A stretch of DNA of 52,065 nucleotides, taken from contig JAFGJV010000036.1 of NCBI GenBank assembly GCA_016928955.1, positions 1 through 52,065 on the forward strand. Reading direction: 5' to 3'. This document shows, piece by piece, positions 227 to 41,494 of the stretch. Each line of letters opens with the position of its first letter. Within the stretch, counting starts at the first letter, position 1. Both the position numbers and the translations under genes were made by a program. Below the pieces are notes generated by a model that was not told the origin of the DNA, made no database searches, and worked only from the letters and a program-made list of their open reading frames with translations. Source of the DNA: Spirochaetales bacterium (lineage in GTDB: Bacteria; Spirochaetota; Spirochaetia; Treponematales; UBA12059).

Positions 227-721
227 TCAAGCGAGCCTTGAGAGCGCCCGCCGTATGTAAAACAGCCTGCACTTGATGGTCCCTTCCGGCTGGCCAAGCG
301 TTTTGGCCAGCTCGGATATGGGACGGCGCTCGCGGTAGAACAGGCGGTACAGCTCGCGGTCAGCCGGGCTCAAACCCTCAAGCATCAGGTCCACGCACAG
401 CCGCCGCCACTCCCCGTCCGGGCGGCCGTGCAGGGCCCGGTCGCTGGCGCAGTCGGCGGGCAGGGAGTCGCACAGCGCGTCCGCCTTCCGCACGCGCGAA
501 CGCGCCAGGTTCCTGGCTATGCCGTGCATCCAGGTGGACAGGCTGGAAGCGCCCCTGAACGAGCGCCTGGACAGCCAGGCCTCGGCCAGGGTGTCCTGGG
601 CAAGCTCCTCGGCCGCCTGCTCGTCGAGCAGCTCCTTCTTGAGCCACGCACACAGGCGGTCCACGCAGGACAGGGCGTCGGCCAGGAAGCGGCCGTCGTC
701 CGGCTCAGGCCCGGCCGGCAA
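227..721 (-). CDS. ECF-type RNA polymerase sigma-70 factor
   Basis: Region 2 (AEELAQDTLAEAW..F.G.SSLSTWMHGIARN) and region 4 HTH (ISELAKTLGQPEGTIKCRLF); TTG start overlaps the upstream gene. Confidence 0.85.
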   Translation of the reverse strand: MPAGPEPDDGRFLADALSCVDRLCAWLKKELLDEQAAEELAQDTLAEAWLSRRSFRGASSLSTWMHGIARNLARSRVRKADALCDSLPADCASDRALHGRPDGEWRRLCVDLMLEGLSPADRELYRLFYRERRPISELAKTLGQPEGTIKCRLFYIRRALSRLA

Positions 722-1331
722 GGTCCAGCACCTTCTCCGCGGTCAGGCCGGGCCGGTCGTGGCTGAGAACGCTGTCAAAGCCCTCCAGCGCCAGGTCCAG
801 GCGGCGTTCCTCGTCGGCCAGCATGGCGGCCTTCAGCTTTTCCAGCCTGATACGCGCCTGGAGGGGATCCGTCTGGTCCGCCACCAGGCGCAGGCCCAGG
901 CGGGTAAATGCGTCCGGGCAGGAATCGGACAAGGCCTGGATGTCGTCGTAGCGATCGCCGTCGACCATGCGGGCCAGATGGATAAAATTGGCCGCCTGCT
1001 CAAAGAGGCTAGACGGCCGGCTCAGGTACTCGGGCGTTGGCGGCTGGGCGGAGCCTTCCATGCGGTCAAAACGCTTAAGGAGGCGTTTGAACGTGGATAC
1101 GGCGCCGGCAATGGCCTGCGGGCCCAGGGTGCCCGCGTCCGACTCCATGTCTTGTTGCACGGCCTCGTACGCGCGCTTGGATATGTTCCGGTACAGGGCC
1201 TGGCGGGACTCGTCGTCCAGACCGACCAGGCAGGCAATGAAATCCCGGGTATCCACCTGCCGTATGGCCAGCTGGATGACGATGTTGTTGCGCTGGGTAT
1301 CTTCCAGGAACCGGCCAAGATTTTCTGACAT
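705..1331 (-). CDS. FliG C-terminal-domain protein with a C-terminal MotA-cytoplasmic-like segment
   Basis: N-half IQLAIRQVDTRD...YRNISKRA...QDME resembles FliG_C; C-half DAFTRLGLRLVADQTDP...LEGFDSV..DRP..EKV resembles MotA cytoplasmic motifs; AGGAGG RBS. Confidence 0.6.
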   Translation of the reverse strand: MSENLGRFLEDTQRNNIVIQLAIRQVDTRDFIACLVGLDDESRQALYRNISKRAYEAVQQDMESDAGTLGPQAIAGAVSTFKRLLKRFDRMEGSAQPPTPEYLSRPSSLFEQAANFIHLARMVDGDRYDDIQALSDSCPDAFTRLGLRLVADQTDPLQARIRLEKLKAAMLADEERRLDLALEGFDSVLSHDRPGLTAEKVLDLAGRA

Positions 1332-1380: not shown

Positions 1381-1419
1381 GGGAACCCTCTAAAAACCCC
1401 ATGGTTATTAGAGGCTCCC
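1381..1419. repeat. Intergenic palindromic (REP-like) element, copy A
   Basis: GGGAACCCTCTAAAAACC-ccat-GGTTATTAGAGGCTCCC; related to copies at 35.2, 41.6, 51.9 and 12.4 kb. Confidence 0.75.
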
Positions 1420-1450
1420 TATTGTTTAGTGCCCGTGGCCAGCCGGCAGG

Positions 1451-1479
1451 TTGAGAAAAAAACGCCGCGCTGGTATCGT
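1451..1479 (+). promoter_or_regulatory. Putative sigma70 promoter of the tldD operon
   Basis: TTGAGA-17 bp-TATCGT with TGn extension; GGAGG RBS follows. Confidence 0.5.
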
Positions 1480-1496: not shown

Positions 1497-2879
1497 ATGA
1501 AACACAGCGGCTTGGCCGATAGCGCCCGTCCCTTTGCCGAGTACACGGAAGTGCGGAGCCAGGAGAACCGGTCGTCACAAATCAGTTTATTGAACGGCGA
1601 CGTGGTGTCCAATGGCTCGGGTACGCAGTCCGGGGTGTCGGCCCGCGTGCACAAAAACGGCGTGTGGGGTTTCGCGTCGTCCCCCGAGAAGGACCGGGCC
1701 GCCCTGCGCTCGTGCGTGGAGCGGGCCACGGCCAATGCCCTGTTCCTGGCTTCCAAGGAGGGGCGCGACGCGGGGCTCCTGCCGTCCAGGCCCGGGACCG
1801 GGGACCACGACCTGGCCTCAGGCTCGCCTGGGCGGTCCAAGTCCGAGCTGGTTGAATTCATGCGCGACCTGGACGCGCACTGCGCCAAGAGCCTGCCGGG
1901 CCTGGCGTCCCGTTCGTTGGGCTTGAGCCGCCTGGACATGGAGAAAACCCTGGCCACGTCGGACGGGGCCGACTCCTGGTCGCTCATACCGCGTACCTTG
2001 ATTTTTGTGTCCCTGACCCTGGCCGCCAGGGGAGAGCCCATAGAGCTGTATGATGTGTTCGGCGGTCTGGGCAGCTTTGAGGACGTTTTTTCCGAGCCAT
2101 CAGCCCTGTACGGCCGCCTAGACCTGCTAGCCGAACGGCTCAGGCAAAAGGCCCGGGGCGTGTACGCCAAACCAGGTACCCATGACGTGATCCTGGACGC
2201 TGACCTGGCCGGCATCCTGGCCCATGAGGCCATAGGCCACACGGTGGAGGCCGACCTGGTGCTGGGCGGGTCTGTGGCGGCCGACTACCTGGGCCAGCCC
2301 GTGGCCAGTCCCCTCATCAGTCTTACGGATTTTGCGAACGACGCCCTAGGACGGCGCTGCCCGGTGCCCGTGTGGGTTGACGACGAGGGAATAGAGGCGC
2401 GGGACGCCGTGATCATAGACCGGGGGGTGCTTTCGTCGTACATGCACAACAAGGAGAGCGCCGCCCACTTCGGCGCCGAGCCCACGGGCAACGCGCGCGC
2501 GTACGGCTTTTCCGACGAGCCGATAATACGCATGCGGAACACGGCCATTCTGCCAGGGCAGAGCAGTCTGGAGGACATGATAGCCGGAGTGGACCGCGGC
2601 TACTACTTCCTGCGCCCGTCCAACGGCCAGGCGGATTCCACCAGCGAGTTCATGTTCGGCGTGACCATGGGCTACGAAATACGGGGCGGCAAGCTCGGCC
2701 CAGCGGTCAGGGACTGCACCGTATCCGGCGTGGCCTTTGACGTGCTCAAGACCGTGAGCGCCGTGTCGCGGGACATGAGCTGGACCGCCGCCGGCATGTG
2801 CGGCAAGAAGCAGTCCATACCGGTGGGCATGGGCGGCCCCGCCATACGCTGCAGGATGAACGTGGGAGGCCGGGCATGA
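1497..2879 (+). CDS. tldD: TldD family metalloprotease
   Basis: HEAIGH zinc motif, DDEG, GNARA, RMRNT, C-terminal CGK..Q..PV..GGP. Confidence 0.92.
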   Translation: MKHSGLADSARPFAEYTEVRSQENRSSQISLLNGDVVSNGSGTQSGVSARVHKNGVWGFASSPEKDRAALRSCVERATANALFLASKEGRDAGLLPSRPGTGDHDLASGSPGRSKSELVEFMRDLDAHCAKSLPGLASRSLGLSRLDMEKTLATSDGADSWSLIPRTLIFVSLTLAARGEPIELYDVFGGLGSFEDVFSEPSALYGRLDLLAERLRQKARGVYAKPGTHDVILDADLAGILAHEAIGHTVEADLVLGGSVAADYLGQPVASPLISLTDFANDALGRRCPVPVWVDDEGIEARDAVIIDRGVLSSYMHNKESAAHFGAEPTGNARAYGFSDEPIIRMRNTAILPGQSSLEDMIAGVDRGYYFLRPSNGQADSTSEFMFGVTMGYEIRGGKLGPAVRDCTVSGVAFDVLKTVSAVSRDMSWTAAGMCGKKQSIPVGMGGPAIRCRMNVGGRA

Positions 2880-4201
2880 CGGATCGCGCAGACGGAATGG
2901 ACGTGGTACGGGCCGCGCTCAAGGAACTGAAGGACGCCGGCGCCGACCAGGCCGTGGCGTCGCTGACCCGGGGCGAGAAGAGCGAACTGAACGTGGACTC
3001 TGGCCGCATGAGCCTGTACCGGACCACGGCCAACGTGTCCATAGGCGTGATGGCCCTGGTCGGTTCGCGCAAGGGCTCGGTGTCCGTCAACGACGCGTCG
3101 CCGGAGGCCATACGCACGGCGGCCAAGGAAGCCGTGGCCACGGCCCGCGCCGGGCGGCCCGATCCGGCCAACGGGATATCCCCGGCCCGTGAGCTGGAGC
3201 GCTTCAGCCGCGGGCAGGACAAGCCGGATTCGGAGGCCATGTACGCTCGTCTGCGCGAATTCGTGGACTACGCCGGCCGAGAGTACCCGGACACCATGCT
3301 GGAGCAGTGCGTGCTGGACTTTGTGGCCGTGGATACGTTTTACGCCAACTCAAACGGCGCCGAATTCGCCGAGCGCGACGGCGCATACGACTTTTCCGCT
3401 ATGTTCACCACCAAGAAGGGCGGCCGCGCGTCCAGCTTCAACAGCTCGGGCGCCAGCCACCTGTCCCTGGACACTCCGCTTGCCCAATGGGGCACCCTGG
3501 ACAGGCTCATGCGCGAGTCGGCGGCCAGCCTGGACGCCCGGCCGGTGGACCGCGCCTTCAAGGGAGATCTCATACTGACGCCCGACTGCCTTGGGGATTT
3601 TCTGTCCTTCCTGGACGACGCGTATCTGGGCGACTACGCGCTGATCACCGGCAACTCGCCCTGGAAAAAGAAACTGGGCCGGCGCGTGCTGTCGCCCCTG
3701 GTTACCGTGCGCTCCGAACCTAACGGGCCGCGCGTCGAGCTGGGCTACGGCTACACGGGAGACGGTTTCCGGGCCGAGAACTGCTCCATCATAGAGGCCG
3801 GCCGCCTGGAAAGCTTCACCCTGGGCCTGTACGGATCCAACAAGACGGGCCTGCCGCGCTGTCCGTCGGGCGGCGGCGCCGTAATCATGGAGCCGGGCGG
3901 GACCCCGTATACCGACATGGTGGCGTCCGTTAAGCGCGGCATCGTCATGTCCCGCTTTTCCGGGGGCTCACCCTCTAAAAACGGGGACTTCTCCGGCGTG
4001 GCCAAGAACTCCTTCCTGGTGGAGGACGGCAGGATAATCCGCCCGCTGGCGGAGACCATGGTGGCCGGCAACCTGGCGCGCCTGTTCAACGACGTGCGGG
4101 CTGTGTCGAAGGAAACCGTGTCCTTTGGCTCAAGCATCCTGCCCTGGGTGCTCTGCGGCGGGGTGCACATATCCGGGGCGGTCAAGGGGAGGGGAGCGTG
4201 A
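2876..4201 (+). CDS. pmbA: TldE/PmbA family protein
   Basis: ATGA overlap with tldD; GDFSG, F.VEDG.I..P..ETMVAGN motifs; no HExxxH. Confidence 0.85.
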   Translation: MTDRADGMDVVRAALKELKDAGADQAVASLTRGEKSELNVDSGRMSLYRTTANVSIGVMALVGSRKGSVSVNDASPEAIRTAAKEAVATARAGRPDPANGISPARELERFSRGQDKPDSEAMYARLREFVDYAGREYPDTMLEQCVLDFVAVDTFYANSNGAEFAERDGAYDFSAMFTTKKGGRASSFNSSGASHLSLDTPLAQWGTLDRLMRESAASLDARPVDRAFKGDLILTPDCLGDFLSFLDDAYLGDYALITGNSPWKKKLGRRVLSPLVTVRSEPNGPRVELGYGYTGDGFRAENCSIIEAGRLESFTLGLYGSNKTGLPRCPSGGGAVIMEPGGTPYTDMVASVKRGIVMSRFSGGSPSKNGDFSGVAKNSFLVEDGRIIRPLAETMVAGNLARLFNDVRAVSKETVSFGSSILPWVLCGGVHISGAVKGRGA

Positions 4202-5334
4202 CCATGTTCCAGCCATTCGAGCTAGAGCGCTTCTTTGCCAAACACGAGTTCAGCGCCAAGTGGCTCCTCTGCTCGTCAGATTGCGAGACCTTCCCGGTCC
4301 GCGAGCTACTGGCCATGGACCCGGACGCCCTGGACCGGCTCCTGGACCTGCGCCTGGGCTACACGGAGACGCGGGGCGCGCCCAGCCTCCGGGCGTCCAT
4401 AGCGGACTTGTATGCCGGCCTGGGCGCCGACCAGGTGTTCGTGCACGCCGGCGCCGAGGAAGCCATCCTGAACCTGTTCATGGCCGAGCTTTCCCCGGGC
4501 GACACGGTGGTGGTCAACGCGCCGTGCTACCAGTCCCTGGGGGAGATACCGCGGGCCCTCGGTTGCCGGGTGGTGGACTGGAACCTGCGCGTGGACGGCC
4601 AGGGCGACGCGGCGCGCTGGACCCTGGATCCGGACGAACTGCCCGGCCTGTCGGGCGGCACGGCCAAGATCATCGTCCTCAACCTGCCGCACAATCCCAC
4701 GGGCGCCTTGCTCACGCGTGACGAGTTCGAGGCGGTGGTGACCTACGCCAGGCGCACCGGGGCCCTGCTTCTGGTGGACGAGGTGTACCGGCGCCTGGAG
4801 CGCGAGCAGGCGCGGCGCCTTCCGTCCGTGTGCGAGGTGTACGAGAACGGCGTGGCCCTGGACGTGCTGTCCAAGCACTCCGGCCTGGCCGGCCTCCGCG
4901 TGGGCTGGCTGGCGTCCAGGCGCGCCGACGTGCTGGACCGGGTGGCCGTGGTCAAGGACTACAACTCGATATGCTCGTCCGGACCCAGCGAGGTCCTGGC
5001 CGAAATAGCCCTCCGGAGCCTGGACCGCATCGTGGGCAGGAACCGCGCCCTGGTCGCCCGGAACCTGCTCGTGTTCGAGCGCTTTCTGGCCGAGCGGCCG
5101 GATTTTGCCGCCTGGGTCCGGCCCGAGGGAGGGTCCATAGGCTTTCCGCGCCTGGCCGACGGCTCGGACGCCGAAAGCCTGGCCGAGCGCCTGGTGGCTG
5201 AGGCGGGCGTCCTCATCCTGCCCGGCCGCTTTTACCGGTACGACCAGGCGCACTTCCGCGTTGGCTACGGCCGCGCCAATTTTCCTGACGCCCTGGAGCG
5301 CCTGGGCGACTGGCTGGACGGACGGAAGGACTGA
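4198..5334 (+). CDS. PLP-dependent aminotransferase class I/II
   Basis: NLPHNPTG, DEVY, SKHSGLAGLRVGW (PLP lysine); GTGA overlap with pmbA. Confidence 0.9.
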   Translation: MTMFQPFELERFFAKHEFSAKWLLCSSDCETFPVRELLAMDPDALDRLLDLRLGYTETRGAPSLRASIADLYAGLGADQVFVHAGAEEAILNLFMAELSPGDTVVVNAPCYQSLGEIPRALGCRVVDWNLRVDGQGDAARWTLDPDELPGLSGGTAKIIVLNLPHNPTGALLTRDEFEAVVTYARRTGALLLVDEVYRRLEREQARRLPSVCEVYENGVALDVLSKHSGLAGLRVGWLASRRADVLDRVAVVKDYNSICSSGPSEVLAEIALRSLDRIVGRNRALVARNLLVFERFLAERPDFAAWVRPEGGSIGFPRLADGSDAESLAERLVAEAGVLILPGRFYRYDQAHFRVGYGRANFPDALERLGDWLDGRKD

Positions 5335-8951: not shown

Positions 8952-9602
8952 CTATTTCTTGCGTTTGGAATTCACAAAGCGGATAAAGTCGTTGATGTTC
9001 TTGACCACGATGCGGTCCTGGTACAGCTCCACGCGGCGCTGGTTGGAGAAATGGCCCAGGATGGTCTGCACGTCGTTCAGGTTCATGCCGGCCCAGTGCG
9101 CCACGTCGTCCACGGTTACCTTGAACTCGCGCTTGTCGCCGTCCAGCTCGGCCGCGCCCTGGTTCATGGGCGCGCGCGTCTCGTCCAGCATGAGGAACAC
9201 GTCCGCTATCTTGGCCTGGGGATCCTCCAGGGTCAGGATCATGAAGCGGCGCTTCTGGTCGTATATGCGCTTGGCAAACAGCCTGAGGAGCCTGAGGGCT
9301 ATCTGGGGATTGCCCATCATGAGTATCTCAAAGTTGGCGCGGTTGAATTCCAGGACCTTGACCGTGTCCAGGGCAATGGCGTTGGCTGAGCGCGGAGCGC
9401 CCTCCAGAATGGCCATCTCGCCAAAGATCTCAGGCGGCTGGAGTATGTCTATGTTTTTCTCTATGTCCCCGACGATTTTGGTTATGCGTACCCTGCCGGC
9501 CTGGATCAGGTAAAAACTGTCGCCGGGCTCGTACTCGGCAAAGATCAGCTCCCCGGGTTGGTAGGTTCTGGCAAAGCGGCTGAAACCGGACAGGTCGGAC
9601 AT
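8952..9602 (-). CDS. Crp/Fnr-family cNMP-binding regulator
   Basis: cNMP domain (FGEMAILEGAPRSANAIA) plus C-terminal HTH-like region. Confidence 0.88.
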   Translation of the reverse strand: MSDLSGFSRFARTYQPGELIFAEYEPGDSFYLIQAGRVRITKIVGDIEKNIDILQPPEIFGEMAILEGAPRSANAIALDTVKVLEFNRANFEILMMGNPQIALRLLRLFAKRIYDQKRRFMILTLEDPQAKIADVFLMLDETRAPMNQGAAELDGDKREFKVTVDDVAHWAGMNLNDVQTILGHFSNQRRVELYQDRIVVKNINDFIRFVNSKRKK

Positions 9603-10636
9603 CAGGCGCCTCCCATGGCGTTCATGGCCTTACGGGCCTTGATCCTGGCGCTTGAATCCTCGTCGCCCGGCATGGACAGGACCTTTTTGTAGAAGCCGGC
9701 CGCGCGCTCGTTGTCGCCCTTCTTCTCCCAGGCCTGGCCCATCATGAACAGGATGTCAGCCATGTCCGGGTGCCTGGGCGTTGACTGTATGATGCCCGTG
9801 AAGTGCCGTATGGTGGCGTCCCACTGGGACAGGGCGTACAAGCAGCGGCCCAGGTCAAAGGCGGCCTTGGGGCCGTACTCGCCGTCGTCACCGGATGCGT
9901 CCATGATGCGCTTGAACTCTTTCAGGGCGTCCTGGTGTTTGCCCTGGCTGAATAGGCTGACCGCGTTGTAGTAATCCTTGGCAACGTCAGTGAGCGCCGC
10001 CTGGGCCTGGGGCCTGGGCGCGGTGGCGGCCTGGGGCTCGGTGTCCGGCCTGCCCGCCTGGGACCCGGCCAAAGGAGCCGGACCCTTGCCGTCGCCATAC
10101 CGCGTCAGCGCGGTTTCTGCGGCCTCAAGGAAGCGCCCCGCCTGCTCGGCCATGCGCCCGGCCGGGTAGTAGGTCAGGTAGCGCCCGAACACGTAGCGGG
10201 CCTGGGAATACAGCCGGTTGCGGAGGTAGTACTCGCCGGCGCGGAACAGGCCGTTCTCCGGGTTGACGGACGTCTGGTTTTCCATGAGGTTCTCCACCTG
10301 GCCATGGATGCGCCTGAGCTGGTTGGAGAACACCTTGAGCATTTTCAGTATGATGCGGGTGTTGGACGACGCGAACTGCTCGAATTCCGGCACTGTGAAG
10401 GCCAGCACGGACGCGTCCTGGAGCACCACGGCGTTTTCCTCGCGCGGGTAGTGGCCCAACGAGCTTTTTACCCCGAAGAACTCGCCCCGCTCTATGACCT
10501 CGTGGATGTCCTTGCCGTTTTCTATGTCCGTGTAATTGAGGCTGACGCGGCCGCTCTGGAGGACGTAGACCTTGTCGGCCACATCCCCGTTGAAGTATAT
10601 GACCGAATTGGACCTGAACGCAGCGAGCTTGGGCAT
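9602..10636 (-). CDS. cNMP-binding domain plus TPR protein
   Basis: N-terminal cNMP domain (GEFFG...PREENA); C-terminal TPR repeats. Confidence 0.85.
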   Translation of the reverse strand: MPKLAAFRSNSVIYFNGDVADKVYVLQSGRVSLNYTDIENGKDIHEVIERGEFFGVKSSLGHYPREENAVVLQDASVLAFTVPEFEQFASSNTRIILKMLKVFSNQLRRIHGQVENLMENQTSVNPENGLFRAGEYYLRNRLYSQARYVFGRYLTYYPAGRMAEQAGRFLEAAETALTRYGDGKGPAPLAGSQAGRPDTEPQAATAPRPQAQAALTDVAKDYYNAVSLFSQGKHQDALKEFKRIMDASGDDGEYGPKAAFDLGRCLYALSQWDATIRHFTGIIQSTPRHPDMADILFMMGQAWEKKGDNERAAGFYKKVLSMPGDEDSSARIKARKAMNAMGGA

Positions 10637-13152: not shown

Positions 13153-14178
13153 ATGGACACAAGCGCAAAAGCGGCGCCGGCCGCCGACATCGAACGGGCC
13201 AGGGAAGCGGCCGGACGCCTCCGGAACGCCATGGCCAAGCGGCTGGTGGGCAAGCGGGACCTGGTTGACGGCATCCTGACGGCGGTCATGTCGGAGGGGC
13301 ACGTGCTTCTTGAGGGCGTGCCAGGCCTGGCCAAAACCCTGGCCGTGCGCAGTTTTGCCGCGGCCGCCGGCCTTGAGTACCGCCGCATCCAGTTCACTCC
13401 CGACCTTCTGCCCGGCGACATCACGGGCACCCTGTTCTACGACGCCGGCAGCGGCCGCTTTGTGCCCCGGGAAGGTCCCGTGTTCGCCAACATCGTGCTG
13501 GCGGACGAGATCAACCGGGCGCCGGCCAAGGTCCAGTCGGCCCTGCTTGAGGCCATGGAGGAGCGCCAGGTGACCATGGGCGACCGCAGCCTGGCCCTGC
13601 CGTCGCCGTTCTTCGTGCTGGCCACGCAGAACCCCATAGAACACGAAGGTACCTTCCGTCTGCCCGAGGCCCAGCTGGACCGCTTCATGCTGAAACTGCT
13701 GGCCGACTACCCGGACGAGGGCGAGGAGCTGGACATCGTTGTCCAGAACGCCGACCGCACGGGAGCCGCGGGCCAGGATTTTGGGCCGGCGGGCAAGGTG
13801 GTGGACGCCGCGGACCTGGTCGCCATGCGGAACGCCGCCCGGTCCGTGCGCGTGGAGCGCGAGGTGGCCGAGTACGCCGTGTCGCTGGTGCGCGCCACCC
13901 GTCCGGGCAAGGACGGGCGCAAGGACCTGCCCGCCCAGCGCGAGATCAACAGGTATATTGAATTTGGGGCCAGTCCCCGCGCATCCCTTGCCCTGTACCG
14001 GGCTGCCAGGGGCGGAGCCCTCTTGGACGGTCGCGACTATGTCCTTCCCGACGACGTCAAGAACGCCGCGCCCGCCGTGCTCAGGCATCGCATCGTCCCT
14101 TCCTACGAGGCTGAGGCAGAGCGCGTGGACGTTGAGGCCATCGTGAGAGCGGTGCTGGCGGCCGTGGCCGTGCCCTGA
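13153..14178 (+). CDS. moxR: MoxR family AAA+ ATPase
   Basis: GVPGLAKT, RIQFTPDLLP.D, LADEINRAPAKVQSALLEAM.E, ATQNP.E.EGT..LPEAQLDRF. Confidence 0.95.
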   Translation: MDTSAKAAPAADIERAREAAGRLRNAMAKRLVGKRDLVDGILTAVMSEGHVLLEGVPGLAKTLAVRSFAAAAGLEYRRIQFTPDLLPGDITGTLFYDAGSGRFVPREGPVFANIVLADEINRAPAKVQSALLEAMEERQVTMGDRSLALPSPFFVLATQNPIEHEGTFRLPEAQLDRFMLKLLADYPDEGEELDIVVQNADRTGAAGQDFGPAGKVVDAADLVAMRNAARSVRVEREVAEYAVSLVRATRPGKDGRKDLPAQREINRYIEFGASPRASLALYRAARGGALLDGRDYVLPDDVKNAAPAVLRHRIVPSYEAEAERVDVEAIVRAVLAAVAVP

Positions 14179-15050
14179 TGGACGACGAGGAGCGAAAGCG
14201 CCGGATCAGGCGGCTGGTATTCGCCTCTCCGGCGCTGGCCCGGGCCCTCCTGGCCGGGGACTACCGATCGGCGTTCAAGGGCCGCGGCATGGATTTTGAC
14301 GGCCTGAGAGAGTACGGCACGGACGACGACGCCCTGCGCATGGACTGGAACGCAACCGCCCGCCTTGGAAAACCCTATGTCAAAACCTGGCGCGACGACC
14401 GCAGCCTGTCCGTCTATCTGGTGGTGGACGAATCAGAATCCATGGACCGGGGCGACAGGCGGGCAGACACGGCCCGCACGGCAGCCTCGCTGGTTGCCTA
14501 CGCGTGTTCGGCCAACGGCGTCCGCGTTGGCGGTCTCTTTTTTGGGGGCGACGCCCTTGAGCACGTGGAGCCGGACACCGGTCCGAGGCGGGCCCTGGCC
14601 CTGATCGAGCGCGTCATGGAAGGGCGCCGCGGCCCCGGCCACGGTTCCAGGCTCCCGGAAGCGCTGGAAGCCGCCGCGTCCTGGCTCAAACGCAGGAGCC
14701 TGGTCCTGATTGTCAGCGATTTCCAGGCGGCCGCCTACGCGGTGCCCCTGGCCTTGCTGGCCAGGCGCCACGACGTGGCCATGATCCATATACGGGACGG
14801 CTCGGACCTGCCTCTGGTACCTGACGGATGGACCCTGCGCGCCGTGGACGCCGAGTCGGGCCGCGCCCGGCTGGTGCCCGGCCGGTCCCGCGTCTGGAAA
14901 GGCGCCGTACGGCGCGCTTCGGCCGGCGCCAAGCTCGAGTTGCTGTCGGCGGCGGCCGCCGCCCGCGTGTCTGTCCTGCCACTGGGCCCGTCCGACGACC
15001 CTGTGCTGGCCCTGACGCAGTTTTTTGGCCGCCGCGGGAGACGTCCGTGA
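14178..15050 (+). CDS. DUF58 family protein (MoxR-associated)
   Basis: G.GMDF..LREY...DD...MDWNATAR, VD.S.SM, SDF. Confidence 0.9.
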   Translation: MDDEERKRRIRRLVFASPALARALLAGDYRSAFKGRGMDFDGLREYGTDDDALRMDWNATARLGKPYVKTWRDDRSLSVYLVVDESESMDRGDRRADTARTAASLVAYACSANGVRVGGLFFGGDALEHVEPDTGPRRALALIERVMEGRRGPGHGSRLPEALEAAASWLKRRSLVLIVSDFQAAAYAVPLALLARRHDVAMIHIRDGSDLPLVPDGWTLRAVDAESGRARLVPGRSRVWKGAVRRASAGAKLELLSAAAAARVSVLPLGPSDDPVLALTQFFGRRGRRP

Positions 15051-15925
15051 GCCGCCGTACGCTTGCCCTGGTATTGGCCCTGGGCGGAAGCCTTGCCTGG
15101 GCGGATGTAGCCGTGCTGTCCCTGGAATTCGAGCCGCCCGAGTTTACGCCAGGCCAGATTGTGCTGGCCAGAGCCGTGTGGGACCCGGCGGGCACCCGCT
15201 GGACGGCCGAGCGCGTGTCCACGGGTTTTCCCGAACCCGGTGAGGACGGTCCGAGCGTCCTGTACGCAGAGACCCTGCAGCGCGGCGGCCGGACGGAACT
15301 GGTCGTCGCCTTCATAGCATGGAAACCCGGCCAGGGCGCCCTGCCTCCCCTGTACGTGGGCGGCGCAGCCTTTCCGCCCCTGGAATTCCAGGCAGGCTCC
15401 ATCCTGCCGGCGGCCGGCCGCCACGATCCCGGGATGTTACCCCAGTTGGAACCCAAAGGCCTTCGTACCAACGTATATGTGGCCGCTGGTGCCCTTTTGG
15501 CGGCCGGCATGGCCGCAGCCCTGATAGCGTACAAACTGCTGCCCTGGCTCAAAATCCTGGCCGCGCGCTGGGCGTTCCAGAAGGCCAGGAGGGATTTTGA
15601 GGCCGTGCTCGACTTCCTGCGGGGCGGTGCCGAGGGCCCGGCGGCCTGGGCCGCCCTGGCGTCGGCCCTGCGGCGGTACCTGAACGCCCGGTCCGAGCTG
15701 GATTTTTTTCCCCTGACCGCCCGTGAGGTGGCAGCCCTGCCCGATGGCGTCCTCCCCGGCCAGGTGACCGGCGACGCCGCGGTCATACTGTCGGCCAGCG
15801 ATTACGTTCGTTTTGGCTCGGCTGGAGCCGGGGACTTACCCGCCGCGGTCGAGCTTGCGGCGGCCGTGGTAACGCGGGTGGAGGAAGCTCTGGCGGACAC
15901 GGAAGCCGGGAGGAAACCCGCATGA
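15047..15925 (+). CDS. Membrane-anchored hypothetical protein of the MoxR/Bat operon
   Basis: GTGA overlap; signal peptide, one TM, LRRYL...LTARE...D.VRF tail typical of this operon position. Confidence 0.65.
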   Translation: MSRRTLALVLALGGSLAWADVAVLSLEFEPPEFTPGQIVLARAVWDPAGTRWTAERVSTGFPEPGEDGPSVLYAETLQRGGRTELVVAFIAWKPGQGALPPLYVGGAAFPPLEFQAGSILPAAGRHDPGMLPQLEPKGLRTNVYVAAGALLAAGMAAALIAYKLLPWLKILAARWAFQKARRDFEAVLDFLRGGAEGPAAWAALASALRRYLNARSELDFFPLTAREVAALPDGVLPGQVTGDAAVILSASDYVRFGSAGAGDLPAAVELAAAVVTRVEEALADTEAGRKPA

Positions 15926-16935
15926 TCGTGTTCGAGCGCCCGTGGTTCCTGGCCCTGGTTCTGCCCGCCCTGGCTCTGTGGCTGTGGCTCGGCCGCAGAG
16001 GCTCGCGCCGGGGGATGCCCCTGCCCCTGGACGACTGGGGTGGCGCCCCGGGTCCGGAGGCGCCCTGGGTGTGGCGGCTTGTCCTGATGGCGTCGACCAC
16101 GCTAGGCCTGGCTGCCTGGCTGGCCACCATGCTGGCTGCCTCGGCACCCGTGCGCGTGGAACGCATACCGGCGCGCTACCGAAGCGAGCTGGACCTGATG
16201 TTCGTGCTGGACGTGTCGCCGAGCATGGCGGCCATGGATCTTGAGCCGACCCGGCTGGACGCCGCCCGGCAGTTCGTGCGCGCCTTTCTCAGGTCCGGGG
16301 ACGGGGCGTCCGGAGCTTCCGTGGGGGTGGCCGCCTTTGGTGCTGAGGCGTCCCTGCTGTGCCCGCCCACCGTTGATTACGGCACCGCCGATCAGCTGCT
16401 GGATCTCATGATGCCCGGGGCCCTTGGCGACGGCACGGCCGTGGGCCAGGGCCTGGCCCTGGCCTTGCGCCACCTGTTGGCCGGCTCGGGCAGCAGGAAG
16501 GCAGCCGTGCTTCTGACCGACGGCGAGGACAACGCTGGCCGCATTCATCCCCTGGACGCAGCGGCCACGTACCGGCGCTATGGCGTGGGCCTTATCGTGG
16601 TGGGCCTCGGTTCCCAGGGCGACGCGCCCATAGAGTACGTGGATCCGGACAGCGGCGAGACCCTGAAGGGTTCATACAGGAGCGCCTTCAGCGACGCGGC
16701 CCTTGCGGCCATAGCGGAAGCCGGGGGCGGCCGGTACCAGGCGGCACGTGACGTGCGGGCCCTGGAAGCGGCCATAGAGGACGTGGGAGCGCTGGCCGGC
16801 GTGGACCCCGGCTCGGCGTCGGCCCTGCCCCTGGCCCGGAGAACCAGCCTGGCCCGGCCCGTAATGGTCCTGGCCCTGATCCTGGCCGCCGGATCCTGGC
16901 TTTTACGGCGTTTGGTGCTGGGAGGCGTGGCATGA
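15922..16935 (+). CDS. batA: BatA-like vWA domain protein
   Basis: FERPWFL N-terminus, MIDAS DVSPSM, GTAVGQGL, LLTDGEDNAG. Confidence 0.85.
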   Translation: MIVFERPWFLALVLPALALWLWLGRRGSRRGMPLPLDDWGGAPGPEAPWVWRLVLMASTTLGLAAWLATMLAASAPVRVERIPARYRSELDLMFVLDVSPSMAAMDLEPTRLDAARQFVRAFLRSGDGASGASVGVAAFGAEASLLCPPTVDYGTADQLLDLMMPGALGDGTAVGQGLALALRHLLAGSGSRKAAVLLTDGEDNAGRIHPLDAAATYRRYGVGLIVVGLGSQGDAPIEYVDPDSGETLKGSYRSAFSDAALAAIAEAGGGRYQAARDVRALEAAIEDVGALAGVDPGSASALPLARRTSLARPVMVLALILAAGSWLLRRLVLGGVA

Positions 16936-17897
16936 CGCCCGACTACGCCTGGCTGTGGTTGCTTTTTGCCCTGGCCCCCTATATTGCCCTGAGCCTGCGC
17001 TGGCAGGGCACGCTCGCGTCATTCCGGCCAGGCGACCGGGAATGGGCATCCATGGTGGCACGGCGCCGCCGGTCCATGGCCGCAGGCGCGGCTTTCTGGG
17101 CATGCGGCGTGCTGGCAGTGTCCGGGATAAGCGGTTCCGTGCGCCAAGTGCCCGAGCGGGTGGGCGACGCGGTGGTCACCGTGGTGCTTGACGCGTCCAA
17201 CTCGATGCTGTCCCGGGCGACCGGGGGCGGAAGCCGCCTGGACGAGTCCCTGCGCTTGGTCCGCGCGCTGACGGCCTCCGTGCCGCCGGTGCGCTGGCGC
17301 CTGGTCGCCTTTGAGGGCAGGGCCATGACCCTCTGCCCGGCCACCTATGACCTGGCCGCCTTTGACGAAAGCCTGGCCTGGGTGGGGCCAGCCTTGAGCG
17401 ACGCCCCCGGCTCGGATCTGGGAGCGGCGCTTGCCGAGGTGCGGACGCGGGAAGACGGAAGCTCGTCCAGCGTGGTCCTGGTTTTGTCAGACGGCAACGA
17501 CACGGGCGGCAACGCGCGGCTCGAGGCAGGCCGCCTGGGAGCGTCCGGCGCGCGGCTGGTGTTCGTGGGAGCCGGAGGGCAGCCCGAACCTGTGGCCAAC
17601 GAGGCTGGCCTGCCCGTTCTGGACCACGAAGGCCGCCAGTTCAGCCTGGGCCTGGCCGAGGCGGCCATGAACGACTGGGCCAGGGCTTCCCGAGGAAGCT
17701 TTGTCCGCCTGGACGACCCCGCGGCCTTCCAGACCTTGGCGGACGTCATAGAGGAGGCTGCCCGGGGAGCGGGTAGCTGGCGGAACGTGCCCAGAAAAAC
17801 GGACGGGGCGCCGACCATGGCGGTTCTGGCGGCGCTTGCCCTGGCCCTTGCGGCTTTTTTTGACCTGCCCCAGCGCAGGGCGGGGAGGCGTAGATGA
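16932..17897 (+). CDS. batB: BatB-like vWA domain protein
   Basis: DASNSM MIDAS, CP.T.D, GSDLGAAL, LSDG. Confidence 0.75.
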   Translation: MTPDYAWLWLLFALAPYIALSLRWQGTLASFRPGDREWASMVARRRRSMAAGAAFWACGVLAVSGISGSVRQVPERVGDAVVTVVLDASNSMLSRATGGGSRLDESLRLVRALTASVPPVRWRLVAFEGRAMTLCPATYDLAAFDESLAWVGPALSDAPGSDLGAALAEVRTREDGSSSSVVLVLSDGNDTGGNARLEAGRLGASGARLVFVGAGGQPEPVANEAGLPVLDHEGRQFSLGLAEAAMNDWARASRGSFVRLDDPAAFQTLADVIEEAARGAGSWRNVPRKTDGAPTMAVLAALALALAAFFDLPQRRAGRRR

Positions 17898-18475
17898 GCG
17901 CGGTACGCGGGCGGATACTGTTTCTTGCCCTGTCGGTCTCAGGCATCTTGGCCTCGTGCGGGCGCACCGCCGACGGCATGGCCGTGCTCAAGGCCAACGC
18001 CGACTACGAAGCCGGCCGTATCCATGACGCCATAGCCTCGTATATGGACGTGGGCACGGCCGCGTTTGACGGCGCCGTGGCCTGCAACCTGGCCAACGCC
18101 TTCTCAGCCCTGGGCGAACTGCGCGCGGCCGAACCTCTCTACCAGGAGGCCGGACGCTCGCCCGACGCCCTGGTCGCCGCCGCCGCCTTCCACAATCTCG
18201 GGGTGGCTTTATATGGACTGGAGCGCTATCCGGAAGCTGCCCGAGCATTCAAATCCAGCCTCCTTGCCCGCCCCGGTTCCCTTGAGACCATGAGGGCCTA
18301 CGAGCTTGCCCTGGACGCGGCCCGCCCTGATTCCACGGCCGGAGCCGTGGAGCGGGGCGAGGCTGACCTGTCCGGCACGGGCGGGGAGCCTTCGTTTTTC
18401 AGCATGGCGCGCAAGCAGGACCAGGCAACATACACGGTTGGCGAGTCCGCGGCCTTGGAAGGAGCCGACCATTGA
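17894..18475 (+). CDS. BatC-like TPR (lipo)protein
   Basis: LASC lipobox-like; HNLGVALY...Y.EA...FK TPR; position in operon. Confidence 0.7.
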   Translation: MSAVRGRILFLALSVSGILASCGRTADGMAVLKANADYEAGRIHDAIASYMDVGTAAFDGAVACNLANAFSALGELRAAEPLYQEAGRSPDALVAAAAFHNLGVALYGLERYPEAARAFKSSLLARPGSLETMRAYELALDAARPDSTAGAVERGEADLSGTGGEPSFFSMARKQDQATYTVGESAALEGADH

Positions 18476-20109
18476 AAAAAGCGCTTGCCCTCGGGATGGC
18501 CCTGGCCGGAGCCTGGCTGTGGGCCCAGGACGCGGCGAACGGTTTCAGCATGCATCCTTCGGAGCCCGTGGCCGGCGACGTGGTTGTCATAGTCGTGGAC
18601 CTGCCCGGCATGGATCCCACCCGAATATCCTTTAAGGAGCCGGAGCTTGAGGGACCTGCAGGCTACCTGGCGTCCTCCATAGGCCCGCGCTCCGGCGGAG
18701 GCAGCAGGCTGGAGTTCAGGTTCCAGACCTCTGGACCGGGCACGGTCACTGTCAGGGAGCTGCGCGTGGCCGCCGGGAGCCAGGCCGTGGTCGTGGGTCC
18801 CTGGTCGTTCGTTGTTGGGCAGAAGGAAGGCGCCCTGCTTCCACGCCCGGGCGAATGGCTTGCTCCCAGGTCCGTGTACCGTTTCCAGCCCTTTGCCGTC
18901 AGCGCCCGGGGTACGGGAGGAGAAGCGTTACGGGCGGAGCGCCTGGCCGCCGAGGGCGTGCTCTTTGAGCCCGCCAGTGACGGTCTGTCCTGGCTGGTCC
19001 TGGCTACCGCCACCGGACAGGTTCGGCTTCCGGCTTTGGAACTGGACGGGGAGACGGGCAAGGTAGCCGTGGCAGGTACCACGGTCCAGGTCAAGGCCAT
19101 ACCGCCGCGCTCAGCCGCAAACCGTGCCGTGGGACGCTGGTCGCTTAGGCTGAGTCTTCTATCCGGCGAACGGAGGGTCCAGCTGGGCTCAGTGGTACCC
19201 GTCCAGGCCAGCGCGGTCGGCTCGGGTTCGGTAGGCGTGGCCAGCCCGCCAATCGTGCGCGTAACCGGCCCGGACGGCGGCGCCGTGGCTTTTGATCACG
19301 CCGGCGGGGTGTTCGGGGCGGCTCGGGTGCTAGGCGACACGTTTGAGGGCGAGCGCTCCATCAGAGGATCGTTTAAGGCCGAGCGTCCCGGCAGGTATCT
19401 GGTCAGTGTGGAGCCGTACGCGTGGTTTGACCCCGTGAACGGCAAGGAACACCTGGCCACGGTCCCGGACTTGGTAGTGGACGTATATCGCCCGGAAACG
19501 GCAGCGGTCGAGCTGGACACGTCCACGCTGGAGCTTGCTGAGAAGCTCGCGACCCTGTCCGGCACGGGCGGGCGGCCTGCCGCGCGGGACCTGCGCGCAG
19601 CAGCGGACGCGCTTCTTGGCGGAGAACCGGCCGTGGCCCTGCACAGGGCCTCAAAGGCGGAACGCGCGCCGTTCCCGCCTGCCGGCGCCGCTGTCCTGGC
19701 CGACGCGGCCGCCCGGTCCTTGGGTTTTTCCGACAGGCTCAGGGACGTGTTGCCCGCTCCCGGGCCTCTGTTCGCGGCGGCCCTGGCCTTGGCGGCGCCG
19801 GCCGCCGCCTTGTTCGCCTTCAGGAAAACCAGGCGACGGGGCGCGGGGGGCGCCGTGCTGTCCCTCGTGGCGCTGGCCCTGGCCTGCGCCGTGCTGGGCG
19901 GGGCGGCCGTGGTTGAGCGTCGCCAGGACATGCTCGTGTCCTTTGGGGCGCCTGTCCGCTCGGTGCCCGATGCCGCCGCCGCCTCGGGTTTCATAGCGTC
20001 GCCCGGGCTCCAGGGCAGGGTGCTTCGCGACGCCGGCGACTGGGTGTTCGCGGACTTTGGTTCGGGCCGATCGGGCTGGGTGCTTGCGGCCGACGTCGGC
20101 AGGTACTGA
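18472..20109 (+). CDS. BatD/BatE-like exported protein with C-terminal SH3b-like domain
   Basis: Signal peptide, AVG.W.L, WFDP motif, two TMs, W.......GWV SH3-like end. Confidence 0.65.
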   Translation: MKKALALGMALAGAWLWAQDAANGFSMHPSEPVAGDVVVIVVDLPGMDPTRISFKEPELEGPAGYLASSIGPRSGGGSRLEFRFQTSGPGTVTVRELRVAAGSQAVVVGPWSFVVGQKEGALLPRPGEWLAPRSVYRFQPFAVSARGTGGEALRAERLAAEGVLFEPASDGLSWLVLATATGQVRLPALELDGETGKVAVAGTTVQVKAIPPRSAANRAVGRWSLRLSLLSGERRVQLGSVVPVQASAVGSGSVGVASPPIVRVTGPDGGAVAFDHAGGVFGAARVLGDTFEGERSIRGSFKAERPGRYLVSVEPYAWFDPVNGKEHLATVPDLVVDVYRPETAAVELDTSTLELAEKLATLSGTGGRPAARDLRAAADALLGGEPAVALHRASKAERAPFPPAGAAVLADAAARSLGFSDRLRDVLPAPGPLFAAALALAAPAAALFAFRKTRRRGAGGAVLSLVALALACAVLGGAAVVERRQDMLVSFGAPVRSVPDAAAASGFIASPGLQGRVLRDAGDWVFADFGSGRSGWVLAADVGRY

Positions 20110-37789: not shown

Positions 37790-40700
37790 TCAGTCCTCGT
37801 GGCCAAGTTCCAGGATCAACTCCACCTCCCCTCGCGACAGTTTGACGGCGCGGGCTATCTCATCCACCTTCCAGCCCTGGTGGGCCAGCTTGCGCACGGC
37901 TTCCTGAACCGACAGGGACGGGGCGCCCTTGTCGCGCTTGCCCGCCTTGGGTTCGTCCTTCAGAAGCTCGTTGAGCAGTTTCAGGTGGTCCTGGGTCTTC
38001 TTGTTCAGTTCCTCAAAGCGCGTTTCCGCGCGGGCCAGCCACTCGCGGGCCTGGTTCACCTCCGCGGCGCGCTTCTCCGTTTCGTCCAGGGCGCTGCCTA
38101 TGCCGTCCAGGCGCTTGACGGCCTCGTCCAGGGCCGGCTTGGCGTTCATCACCTCGTCCAGGGAGCGCTTGAGGTCTATGATGCGGTCGGGCACCTCGCG
38201 CAGGCCCTCGTCTATGGTGCGGATGTTGCGCTCGAGCTCGGATATGGACTGGAAATTCTTGTCCACGGCGTCCGCGGTGGCGTCCAGGAGATTGGCCTTC
38301 TTTTCCAGCCGCTCGTACTTGTCCGCGGCCTGGTCGGCTTCCTCCGACAGGCGGCGCATCTCGGCCTGGATCTGGGTCAGCTGGTCGTTGCTGGCCGTCA
38401 CCTGCGACAGTTTCTGGTCCACGTTTTGGGACAGGGCCACCAGGCGCTTGAAATCGTCCTCCATGGTGTCCAGGCGACGCTTCTCGGCCAGGAATCTGGC
38501 TATCTTCTGCCCAAGCTCGTCTTCCAGGCGCTTGACGCGCAGGTACTGGGTTTCCAGCTCGGCCATCTCGGCGCGGCGGCCTTCTATCTTGGACAGGTCG
38601 GACTTCATGGCGTCTATGGACTCCGACAGGCGTTGCTTGAGCTCGTCCGCCCGCTCGAAGAGGCGGGTCTGCGACTGGAAATTCTTGATGCTCTTGTCCA
38701 TGTCGGCAAAGACCTTCTCACGGGTCTTGCGCTCATCGTCCATGCTTGACGACAGGGCCGACCTGGCGGTCTCAAAGGCATCCTTGACGGCCTTGGCTTC
38801 CTTCTTGAAGTCGGCCACGGCGGCGTCCATGCCGGCGGCGGCCTCCTTGGCGCGGCGGGCGGCGTCCGAGCTCATGGCGTCGTAGGAACGCTTGAACTCG
38901 TCCATGGCGCCGGCCGTCCTGCCTGCCAGGCCGGAGCTCAGGGCGTCCACTTCCTCCGACAGGGTCTTCACGCTTTGGGCCAGGGCGTCGCGCTCGGCCT
39001 TGGCCTGCTCGATCACCTTCTTGCGTTCCTTGTCCCAGTCGGCCACCAGGGCGCCAACATTGGCGCGGAAGGAGTCGCCCAGGGCGTTCAGGGCCGCGGC
39101 GCGCTGGGCTTCCGCGCCCTTCTCCGCTTCCAGAACCTTCTTCTTTTCCTTGTCCCAGTCCGACGCCAGGGCGGCCGCGCTGGTCTTGAACGACTCGGAG
39201 AGCGAGGACAGGGCGGCGTTGCGCTGGGTCTCTGCGGCCTTGTACGCGGTCTCGAACTTGGCTTTCCAAGCGGCGGCATCGGCCAGCAAGGCTTTTTCCG
39301 CCTTCTCAAAGGAAGCGCGGGCCTGGGTTGCGGCGGTTTCCAGGGCGGCTATCTCGGACGCGCGGGAACGGCCGCTTTCGTCCACGCGCTCGGCCATGGC
39401 GTTCTTCCAGCGCTCAAGCTCGGCTTCCACAAAGGCGTTGGCGGCCTTGGTTGCGTCGGCCATGCTGGTCTTCATTGACGCTTTCAGCGTGTCCAAGGCC
39501 GAGTCTGCCTCTGCCAGGCGGGCGGACACGGACGCGCGGTGGGCTTCTATCTGCTGGGCCAGCTTGTCGGTCTGGTCCTGGACCTGGGCCTGGCTGGCCG
39601 CCAGCTTTGCCTTTATGTCCTGGGCCCAGGCCTTCTCACGCTCGGCCTGGACGGCCATGGCGTCGCGCTGGGCGTCTGCCAGGCGGCCGTCCAACTGGTC
39701 CTTCCAGGCGACGAGCTTGGCGTCGGTGTCCTCGCTCCGTCTGCGCAGGTCGGCAAAGAACTCGTCCTCGAACACCTTGAGCTTCTCCGACACGTCGGCG
39801 TAGGCCTTGGACTTGAGCGCGGTTATGTCGTTTTCCAGGTCGACCACGCTGGCCTTGAGCCTGGACGCGTCGGCGCGCAGCTCGTCCTCGAACTGCTTCT
39901 GGCGGGCGCCCAGGTCCTTGCCGAACAGGGCAAAATCCTCTTCCACCCGGCGCTCCACGCCGGCCAGGGCCTCGCGCAGGGCCTTCTCCATGCGGTCGGC
40001 GTCCAGCCTGAGGTTGGAAAGGCGCTCAAGCCCGGCTTCCACCACGGCGCGCACTTCGTCGCTCCGTTCGCGGAAGGAATCGCTTATGCCGCGCTCCAGC
40101 TCGGCGCCCTTGCCCGCAAAGTGGGACTGAAGGGCGGCCAGGGTGGCCGCGGATTTTTTTTCAGCCTCTAGGAGACGCTCGGATATGCGGGCCTGGAAGG
40201 AGGCGATGGCGTCCGATGTCTTCTTTTCTGCCGCGCCCAGCCCCGAGTCCAGGGCCGCCAGGCGCTTGGCCTGGTCCTGGGCCACCTCGTCGGCCGTGGC
40301 CTTGAAGGCGGCGCGCGACGAGTCCAGGGCGGCCACGGCCCTGTCAGCCTCTGCCTTGGTGGCTGCCAGGGTTTCCTTGATGGTGTTTTTAAGGACGGTC
40401 TGCTTGCTTCCGACATCGTCCTGGTAGGCCTTGAGCATGTCCTTGACCTTGGCCTGGTAGGCGTGGGCCAGCTCGGCCGCCTTGGCCTCTATCCGGGTAA
40501 AGCGGTCCTCGTACACGCCTTCTGCCTTGCGCACGAGCTCGTCAACGGCCTGCACGCGGCCGGCAAGTTCCTTGGCCTGGGCCTCAGCGTCGGCCTTGGC
40601 CTGGGCCATGACGGCGTCGGCGTCCTTGCGCCAGTCTGTCTTGAAGGCCTTGAGCAGGCCCTGGGTTTCTGCCACCTTCTCCCTGGCCTGGTCGCGCAGG

Positions 40701-41494
40701 GTGGTGAACTTGGCCTCTATGGCGTCTGACAGCTTGGCGCTGCGGGCTTCGATCTTGTCCTCAATGGCCTTGTACTCGGCGTCCTCGAGCTTCTGGCCCT
40801 CTTCCCGCGCCCGCCGGAAGGCGTCGGCCAGGTGCTTCTCTATGGTCTTGTAGCGCTCCTCGGCGGAGTCGACAGCGGCCGCGTGCATGGCGCCCACGGC
40901 GGTGACGCTCTCCTCGGCCGCCCTGCGCAGGATCTCTATCTGGTTCTGGGCGTCGTCCATGGCGGAGCGCAGTTCCAGGGAGAAGCTCTCCCTGAGCTCG
41001 GCGGCCATGGCCTTGAGGTCGTCGTCCAGGGTGTCCCGCATGGCCGGCACCGAGCCTTTGAGGCGCTCGATCTCGTCCTTGCTGGCCTTCAGGGTGCGGG
41101 CCACCTGGTCCACAAAGGCGCTCTCGTCGTGGATGACGCGAAGGTTCTCGTCCACCCGCGTGCTCATGTCCTTGAGCTCGAACAGGGCCTGGTCGTACTC
41201 GGCTATGCGCGTGGCCATGGCCCCTATGCTGTCGGCCTTCTCGTTCAGGGCCTCTTCCGTGCCCTGCACGCGGCGGAGCACTTCCTTGGCGGCCTTCTGG
41301 TACACGTCCAGCTCAACGGCGTAGGACTTGAGGTCCTCGGCGCGCTGGTCCGCGTAGGCGGCCATGTCTTCCCTGAGCTTGTCCGCGTACCTTTTGACCT
41401 TCTCCAGGGAGCGATTGTCCCTGTCCATGAGCCGGTACACGGCAAGCATGATGACGACGATGATGATGGTCGCTATGGTGCCCGCATCGAACAT
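37790..41494 (-). CDS. Spirochaete coiled-coil protein (SpiroCoCo-like)
   Basis: N-terminal TM then DR.NRSLEKVKRY; about 1150 aa coiled coil; C-terminal V.KLA.QGW..DEIA....LS.GEVELILE HTH. Confidence 0.8.
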   Translation of the reverse strand: MFDAGTIATIIIVVIMLAVYRLMDRDNRSLEKVKRYADKLREDMAAYADQRAEDLKSYAVELDVYQKAAKEVLRRVQGTEEALNEKADSIGAMATRIAEYDQALFELKDMSTRVDENLRVIHDESAFVDQVARTLKASKDEIERLKGSVPAMRDTLDDDLKAMAAELRESFSLELRSAMDDAQNQIEILRRAAEESVTAVGAMHAAAVDSAEERYKTIEKHLADAFRRAREEGQKLEDAEYKAIEDKIEARSAKLSDAIEAKFTTLRDQAREKVAETQGLLKAFKTDWRKDADAVMAQAKADAEAQAKELAGRVQAVDELVRKAEGVYEDRFTRIEAKAAELAHAYQAKVKDMLKAYQDDVGSKQTVLKNTIKETLAATKAEADRAVAALDSSRAAFKATADEVAQDQAKRLAALDSGLGAAEKKTSDAIASFQARISERLLEAEKKSAATLAALQSHFAGKGAELERGISDSFRERSDEVRAVVEAGLERLSNLRLDADRMEKALREALAGVERRVEEDFALFGKDLGARQKQFEDELRADASRLKASVVDLENDITALKSKAYADVSEKLKVFEDEFFADLRRRSEDTDAKLVAWKDQLDGRLADAQRDAMAVQAEREKAWAQDIKAKLAASQAQVQDQTDKLAQQIEAHRASVSARLAEADSALDTLKASMKTSMADATKAANAFVEAELERWKNAMAERVDESGRSRASEIAALETAATQARASFEKAEKALLADAAAWKAKFETAYKAAETQRNAALSSLSESFKTSAAALASDWDKEKKKVLEAEKGAEAQRAAALNALGDSFRANVGALVADWDKERKKVIEQAKAERDALAQSVKTLSEEVDALSSGLAGRTAGAMDEFKRSYDAMSSDAARRAKEAAAGMDAAVADFKKEAKAVKDAFETARSALSSSMDDERKTREKVFADMDKSIKNFQSQTRLFERADELKQRLSESIDAMKSDLSKIEGRRAEMAELETQYLRVKRLEDELGQKIARFLAEKRRLDTMEDDFKRLVALSQNVDQKLSQVTASNDQLTQIQAEMRRLSEEADQAADKYERLEKKANLLDATADAVDKNFQSISELERNIRTIDEGLREVPDRIIDLKRSLDEVMNAKPALDEAVKRLDGIGSALDETEKRAAEVNQAREWLARAETRFEELNKKTQDHLKLLNELLKDEPKAGKRDKGAPSLSVQEAVRKLAHQGWKVDEIARAVKLSRGEVELILELGHED

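Follow-up and report, generated by a model that had tools for sequence, protein, structure and literature searches.

Near the start of the window (the whole stretch of 52,065 nucleotides that was analysed, contig JAFGJV010000036.1 of a Spirochaetales bacterium) lies a two-gene operon, in which a gene for a soluble FliG_C/MotA fusion protein comes first and a gene for an ECF sigma factor second. The initial annotation had described a 208-aa open reading frame without a transmembrane segment that overlaps the ECF gene by 17 bp, and this description was confirmed (705-1331 versus 227-721). The features of the locus are as follows.

227..721, minus strand: ECF sigma factor, 164 aa, regions 2 and 4 only (PF04542, PF08281); TTG start, 17-bp overlap with the end of the fusion gene
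705..1331, minus strand: fusion gene, 208-aa soluble FliG_C/MotA-cytoplasmic protein, stop included; homologues found
1053..1319, minus strand: FliG C-terminal domain (ARM-C and torque helix), residues 5-93; R53, Q60 and D61 align with FliG R281, D288 and D289
1008..1052, minus strand: Pro-rich linker, residues 94-108, without secondary structure; lowest model confidence (pLDDT 67 for residues 91-100)
810..1007, minus strand: MotA cytoplasmic segment TM2-TM3 (torque-generating interface helices), residues 109-174, corresponding to MotA 74-139 by profile alignment
711..809, minus strand: MotA C-terminal cytoplasmic segment after TM4, residues 175-207, corresponding to MotA 214-247; joined directly to the first MotA segment
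1337..1343, minus strand: ribosome-binding site AAGGAGG of the fusion gene, read from the sequence
1381..1420, no strand assigned: REP-like palindromic repeat of 40 nt in the 5' leader; about 40 further BLAST matches in the genome among those listed
1426..1431, minus strand: predicted -10 element CACTAA, 17 nt from the -35 element, part of a shared upstream motif
1449..1462, minus strand: predicted -35 element CAACC (1453-1449) with upstream T tract, part of the same motif

Architecture of the fusion and its genomic setting

The assignment of the N-terminal half to the FliG C-terminal domain was borne out by a Pfam search, in which PF01706 matched residues 5-93, and the same domain was matched in 11 of 11 members of the fusion family. 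Neither FliG_N nor FliG_M gave a match in the fusion, and TIGR00207 scored 20.8 bits against a cut-off of 226.7 for full-length fliG. The C-terminal half had been read as the cytoplasmic parts of MotA with the transmembrane helices deleted, and a comparison of sequence profiles agrees: both MotA cytoplasmic segments are present in MotA order, and the 74-residue TM3-TM4 hairpin is missing between them (HHalign, 99.4%). No hydrophobic (TM) segment was found in the 208 residues, nor a motB among the neighbouring genes. In the structure model, one continuous helix (residues 156-189) spans the junction of the two MotA segments. The pTM was 0.56 for the whole fusion and 0.79 for the C-terminal half alone, both from shallow alignments, and the two halves have no fixed mutual arrangement.

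Both genes of the operon score as coding under a codon model trained on the genome, and a long open reading frame on the opposite strand is a shadow. In six pairs of relatives the fusion gave dN/dS values of 0.10-0.31, with 0.25-0.29 for the ECF, and the sequence comparison indicates that the fusion is under purifying selection. The closest named homologues are from Spirochaetales, Rectinemataceae and Treponema, which marks the genome as that of a spirochaete, and the only database name for the fusion is 'FliG C-terminal domain-containing protein'.

A scan of 40 window genes gave none of flagellar type, in line with the initial annotation; a different contig of the genome carries fliG, motA and motB in a full motor cluster. 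In all nine fusion-carrying relatives that were checked for FliG, a canonical FliG is present besides the fusion. Outside the flagellar cluster, G000 (C8:42777-43955) contains a second FliG-like gene, divergent and 393 aa in length, which is a candidate partner for the fusion. Elsewhere in the window are a divergent tldD-pmbA/tldE-aminotransferase operon (1497-5334), which is the same neighbour in G002, G013, G012, G026 and G011 and represents lineage-specific synteny; tandem cyclic-nucleotide-binding genes, CRP-like and TPR-bearing (8955-10636); and, in 13153-20106 and 37793-41494, a MoxR/DUF58/vWA (Bat-like) cluster and a 1234-aa open reading frame without Pfam match at E 1e-8.

Pairing with the ECF sigma factor and the predicted promoter

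Of 151 relatives, 12 have a full-length fusion, as do 6 of 300 phylum genomes, 14 of 400 held-out class genomes and 7 metagenome contigs. An ECF gene follows directly on the same strand in 12/12 relatives, in 2/6 phylum-level loci and in 7/7 metagenome loci, two of which duplicate genome loci; in the held-out class set this was the case for 9 of 14 loci, which are 9 of the 11 group members. Linkage to an ECF was thus conserved in the gene-neighbourhood survey: among the 30 distinct loci that carry the promoter described below, the ECF is adjacent in 28 (some of them partial or damaged), 34 kb away in one (G689) and not found in one, although the genomes are related and these counts are not independent. 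The sigma factor itself scored 60.1 bits with TIGR02937 (cut-off 42.9). A reverse search with a profile of the ECF (E<=1e-27), in which scoring was limited to the 24 or 9 top candidates of each genome, returned the same 12 of 151 relatives that carry the fusion and 10 of 401 class genomes; nine of the latter have the fusion and the tenth ECF falls outside the clade.

The paired ECFs form one clade (tree of 23 rows, support 97/94), and its sister ECFs, judged by eye, adjoin a long FecR-like gene instead. The genes flanking the operon vary, with at least eight arrangements, and downstream of the ECF the next gene differs between loci or is missing. The fusion is therefore the only constant neighbour, and there is no conserved membrane anti-sigma. 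The trees of fusion and ECF match (Mantel rho 0.81, n 16), which shows shared descent only. Individual members of the group have features of their own. The 5' end of the ECF gene in L003 (2054-2165, G012) contains a 15-nt tandem repeat encoding repeated Cys-containing pentapeptides, the ECF-linked member in L033 (1492-2427, G315) has a duplicated FliG_C before the MotA part, and in L081, L082, L080 and L054 the operon stands beside GGDEF, HD-GYP or chemoreceptor genes, an arrangement that is not conserved across the group.

Upstream of the fusion, the loci share a motif that consists of a T tract and CAACC-N16/17-(C/T)AC(T/C)AA (window positions 1426-1453). It was present in 16/16 ECF-linked upstream regions (shuffled sequences: mean 0.04, maximum 1/16) and absent from 4/4 ECF-less fusion members and from a truncated ECF-less copy. 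Because the motif was derived from these 16 regions, the fair tests are the left-out window site and the held-out loci. A matrix trained without the window's site ranked that site first in the genome, at 31.2 bits with the next at 22.7, and the promoter was found in 11/11 held-out members (6 with the strict motif, 5 by matrix at 15.2-22.8 bits) and in none of 3 held-out non-members. In G689, the 5' end of the operon has been duplicated and the operon split: the fusion survives in one copy, and the ECF, preceded by a remnant of 40 residues, in the other. Each has retained the promoter (20.9 and 22.7 bits). According to PMC7826278, autoregulation is usual for ECFs, as is a regulator encoded alongside them, so CAACC-N16/17-YACYAA is most likely the ECF's own promoter, as predicted from the sequence. 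It lies 92 nt from the start codon in the window copy and mostly 9-58 nt in relatives, the longer distance being due to insertion of the palindromic repeat in the leader. This repeat is not part of the conserved module. It also occurs in other contigs of sludge runs, and other palindromes occupy the same leader in L007 and L008.

A second conserved target of the promoter matrix was not found: the genome gave 67 matches at 13 bits versus 57-65 after shuffling, searches for the pattern in 10 genomes gave counts close to those of the reversed control or lower, and no downstream gene except the fusion recurred, although weaker targets could hide at background level. No ECF promoter was found before flagellar genes. 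The initial annotation had offered two functions, an anti-sigma/sensor or a motor clutch/decoy. The coupling to the ECF on which it built proved conserved and specific, which favours the anti-sigma/sensor branch.

At loci in which the clade ECF was not found, the fusion is damaged: it is cut to 91 aa with a decayed -10 element in G011, lacks its start in G739 and is reduced to its FliG half in G016; damaged copies occur in G003, G009 and G647 as well. In G016 (L011, 1498-2589), the FliG_C half extends a multi-pass membrane protein at its C-terminus, and neither a MotA half nor the clade ECF was found; the membrane partner looks TspO-like by eye and has no Pfam match. Five full fusions that have neither ECF nor promoter form a separate, weakly supported group (84/70), and both are likewise missing from several forms in which the module is split or repeated. 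Among the more distant forms, L048 (1-3330, G401) has two adjacent genes of ~550 aa each, with N-terminal soluble MotA-cytoplasmic-like repeats followed by FliG_M/FliG_C, and no ECF at that locus. A Pfam-unnamed N-terminal helical domain precedes two MotA-cytoplasmic units in P0007, and FliG_C plus one MotA unit in L154 (1495-2430, G563), in both cases without promoter or ECF. In L155 (558-1466, G527), FliG_C and the MotA-cytoplasmic part are encoded by two separate, paired genes, and P0027 is a 726-aa protein of FliG_C and leucine-rich repeats. The ESM Atlas gave leads to related unnamed clusters in Myxococcota, Spirochaetota, Thermodesulfobacteriota and Bacillota.

Torque-interface residues and candidate roles

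In the E. coli motor, the torque pairs given in PMC12505986 are MotA R90 with FliG D288-D289 and MotA E98 with FliG R281. The docking site of FliG lies between two MotA subunits, and R90 and E98 occupy opposite faces (10.1101/2020.05.12.089201). Residue numbers were transferred through alignments to 8umd_B and 6ysl_G. The initial annotation had noted loss of the MotA charges, and for the window copy this is correct, since D124 stands at the position of R90 and Q132 at that of E98. This loss is specific to the lineage: in the 21 promoter-bearing members the E98 position is acidic in 19, the R90 position is eroded and basic in only 12, R281 is kept in 18 and D289 is acidic in 16, whereas true MotA has R90 and E98 in 19/19. 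The position of MotA L226 is D, E, N or K in 17/21 of these members. Over the FliG charge positions of alignment A6, R281 is R in 29/30, D288 is D/E in 17/30 and D289 is D/E in 28/30. Because R90 and E98 lie on opposite faces and FliG sits between two MotA subunits, a 1:1 fusion would be able to use one face only. The one kept face, E98/R281, would fit a 1:1 contact; R281 and E98 could instead be kept for folding.

We propose that the fusion may be the dedicated cytoplasmic, anti-sigma-like regulator of its ECF, a role for and against which we see the chances as evenly balanced. The proposal follows from three points: the ECF clade lacks a membrane anti-sigma and has no constant partner but the fusion, the fusion is coupled to the ECF, and it decays when the ECF is missing. 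The ECF would transcribe its own operon from CAACC-N16/17-YACYAA, and translational coupling would yield about one fusion per sigma, which the fusion would bind and hold inactive. The E98/R281 face, taken over from the former rotor-stator contact, would hold the two halves of the fusion together until a signal opens this contact or competes for it. The sigma would then be freed, and the result would be a positive feedback loop that the fusion dampens. Should the first two steps apply, the signal might tentatively be sought, at somewhat under an even chance, in motor parts that are unassembled or have become disengaged, namely free C-domains of FliG or the cytoplasmic surfaces of stators; alternatively it may be unrelated to the motor. 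The suggested link to motor state derives from homology only. Further soluble anti-sigmas of unknown type are expected, according to PMC7826278. A known anti-sigma domain was not matched in 11 members by Pfam or NCBIfam at E<=1. Several observations speak against a regulator: the empty regulon, the lost MotA charges of the window copy and the absence of a fixed arrangement of the halves in the model. Forms without ECF or promoter exist, and the module must therefore do something for which a sigma is not required. The strongest objection is that no conserved output beyond the operon itself was found, which fits an effector better.

Such an effector, which we consider somewhat improbable, would make the fusion the output of the ECF, a soluble decoy that binds C-ring FliG or the cytoplasmic face of the stator and brakes or disengages the motor; self-activation would then yield on and off subpopulations. 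Several findings would suit a decoy. No conserved target other than the fusion gene was found, and this gene is first in the operon and retains its promoter although 34 kb from the ECF in G689. Across the group, the positions of E98 and R281 are conserved; carriers have a canonical FliG besides the fusion, and the window genome has a full motor cluster. A decoy is harder to reconcile with a window copy that has neither R90 nor E98, with a basic R90 position in 12/21 members against 19/19 in true MotA, and with a single MotA cytoplasmic domain that amounts to half of a FliG site, and it leaves the ECF without a regulator. Regulator and decoy can be combined: in what would be a new class of sigma-factor control, a soluble copy of the rotor-stator contact would act as an anti-sigma that senses motor state through free or disengaged FliG/MotA surfaces. 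It would release the ECF, which would make more of the motor-braking mimic, a self-contained motor-surveillance switch that we rate as unlikely. The pairing might also reflect a positive partner, a co-activator or chaperone for folding of the ECF or its loading onto RNA polymerase, or combined roles in which the fusion binds ECF and motor in turn as a motor-assembly checkpoint. This is distinctly doubtful. The clade ECF is never found without the fusion, the fusion decays once the ECF is gone, and its upstream position and coupling suit a helper that is made first; such a helper meets the same gaps as a regulator, and co-occurrence gives no sign of regulation. Finally, a stray soluble FliG/MotA member might have come under the promoter of the ECF and been co-inherited without interaction or circuit function, as the patchy distribution (12/151, 11/401 and 2/300 genomes), the several damaged copies and the vertical-looking trees would allow. 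We hold this to be very improbable, since the dN/dS of the fusion is lower than or equal to that of the ECF, the pair is intact across many families despite changing flanks, and both genes were kept with promoters after the split in G689.

Comparison with known systems

Soluble motor brakes and clutches such as YcgR, EpsE and MotI bind FliG or MotA, and the FlgM/FliA assembly checkpoint ties flagellar state to a sigma factor. To our knowledge, none of these is built from FliG or MotA domains, and in contrast to FlgM/FliA the sigma factor of the fusion operon is an ECF and not FliA. No match to a PilZ or glycosyltransferase family was found in the fusion members.

Residues 5-93 resemble FliG_C (PF01706; PDB 1qc7, 1lkv, 3hjl, 8ucs_H) in sequence and predicted fold, with R281 and D289 mostly kept. 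Unlike FliG, the fusion has no N or middle domain, so that it would make no FliF or FliM contact, and it is located outside the flagellar cluster. With the A subunit of the MotA/PomA stator (PDB 8ucs_C, 6ysf, 6ysl, 9lu9; PMC12505986) it has the cytoplasmic segments in common, but it lacks all four TM helices and an adjacent MotB, cannot conduct ions, and has an eroded R90 position. Closer PDB matches suggest that its MotA part may be a four-helix, TGI4-like torque-generating interface. As a natural soluble 1:1 chimera of FliG_C and MotA, the fusion would be a convenient model of the rotor-stator contact.

In the openly available literature searched, judged by listings and the openings of abstracts, neither a soluble FliG_C-MotA fusion nor an ECF neighbour of this kind turned up. 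FliG, MotA and PF01706 do not occur in the main text of PMC7826278 or the earlier part of its supplement, and the accessible part of PMC12505986 has no passage with 'soluble' or 'fusion'. Within that literature, the two-gene operon, the paired ECF clade and the conserved promoter are undescribed. They define an ECF group with a candidate regulator type that is unprecedented there, and for which sigma, partner and predicted promoter are all identified; they also give a first concrete functional handle on a large unnamed family of soluble FliG/MotA proteins. If the link to the motor is true, the operon would provide a route from the torque interface to transcription and would bear on how bacteria sense motor load or assembly. 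The operon is like those of ECFs with soluble anti-sigmas (PMC7826278) in its minimal sigma2-sigma4 ECF, its group-specific, predicted autoregulatory promoter and its one constant neighbour; unlike in those operons, the neighbour lies upstream, consists of motor parts and contains none of the known anti-sigma domains.
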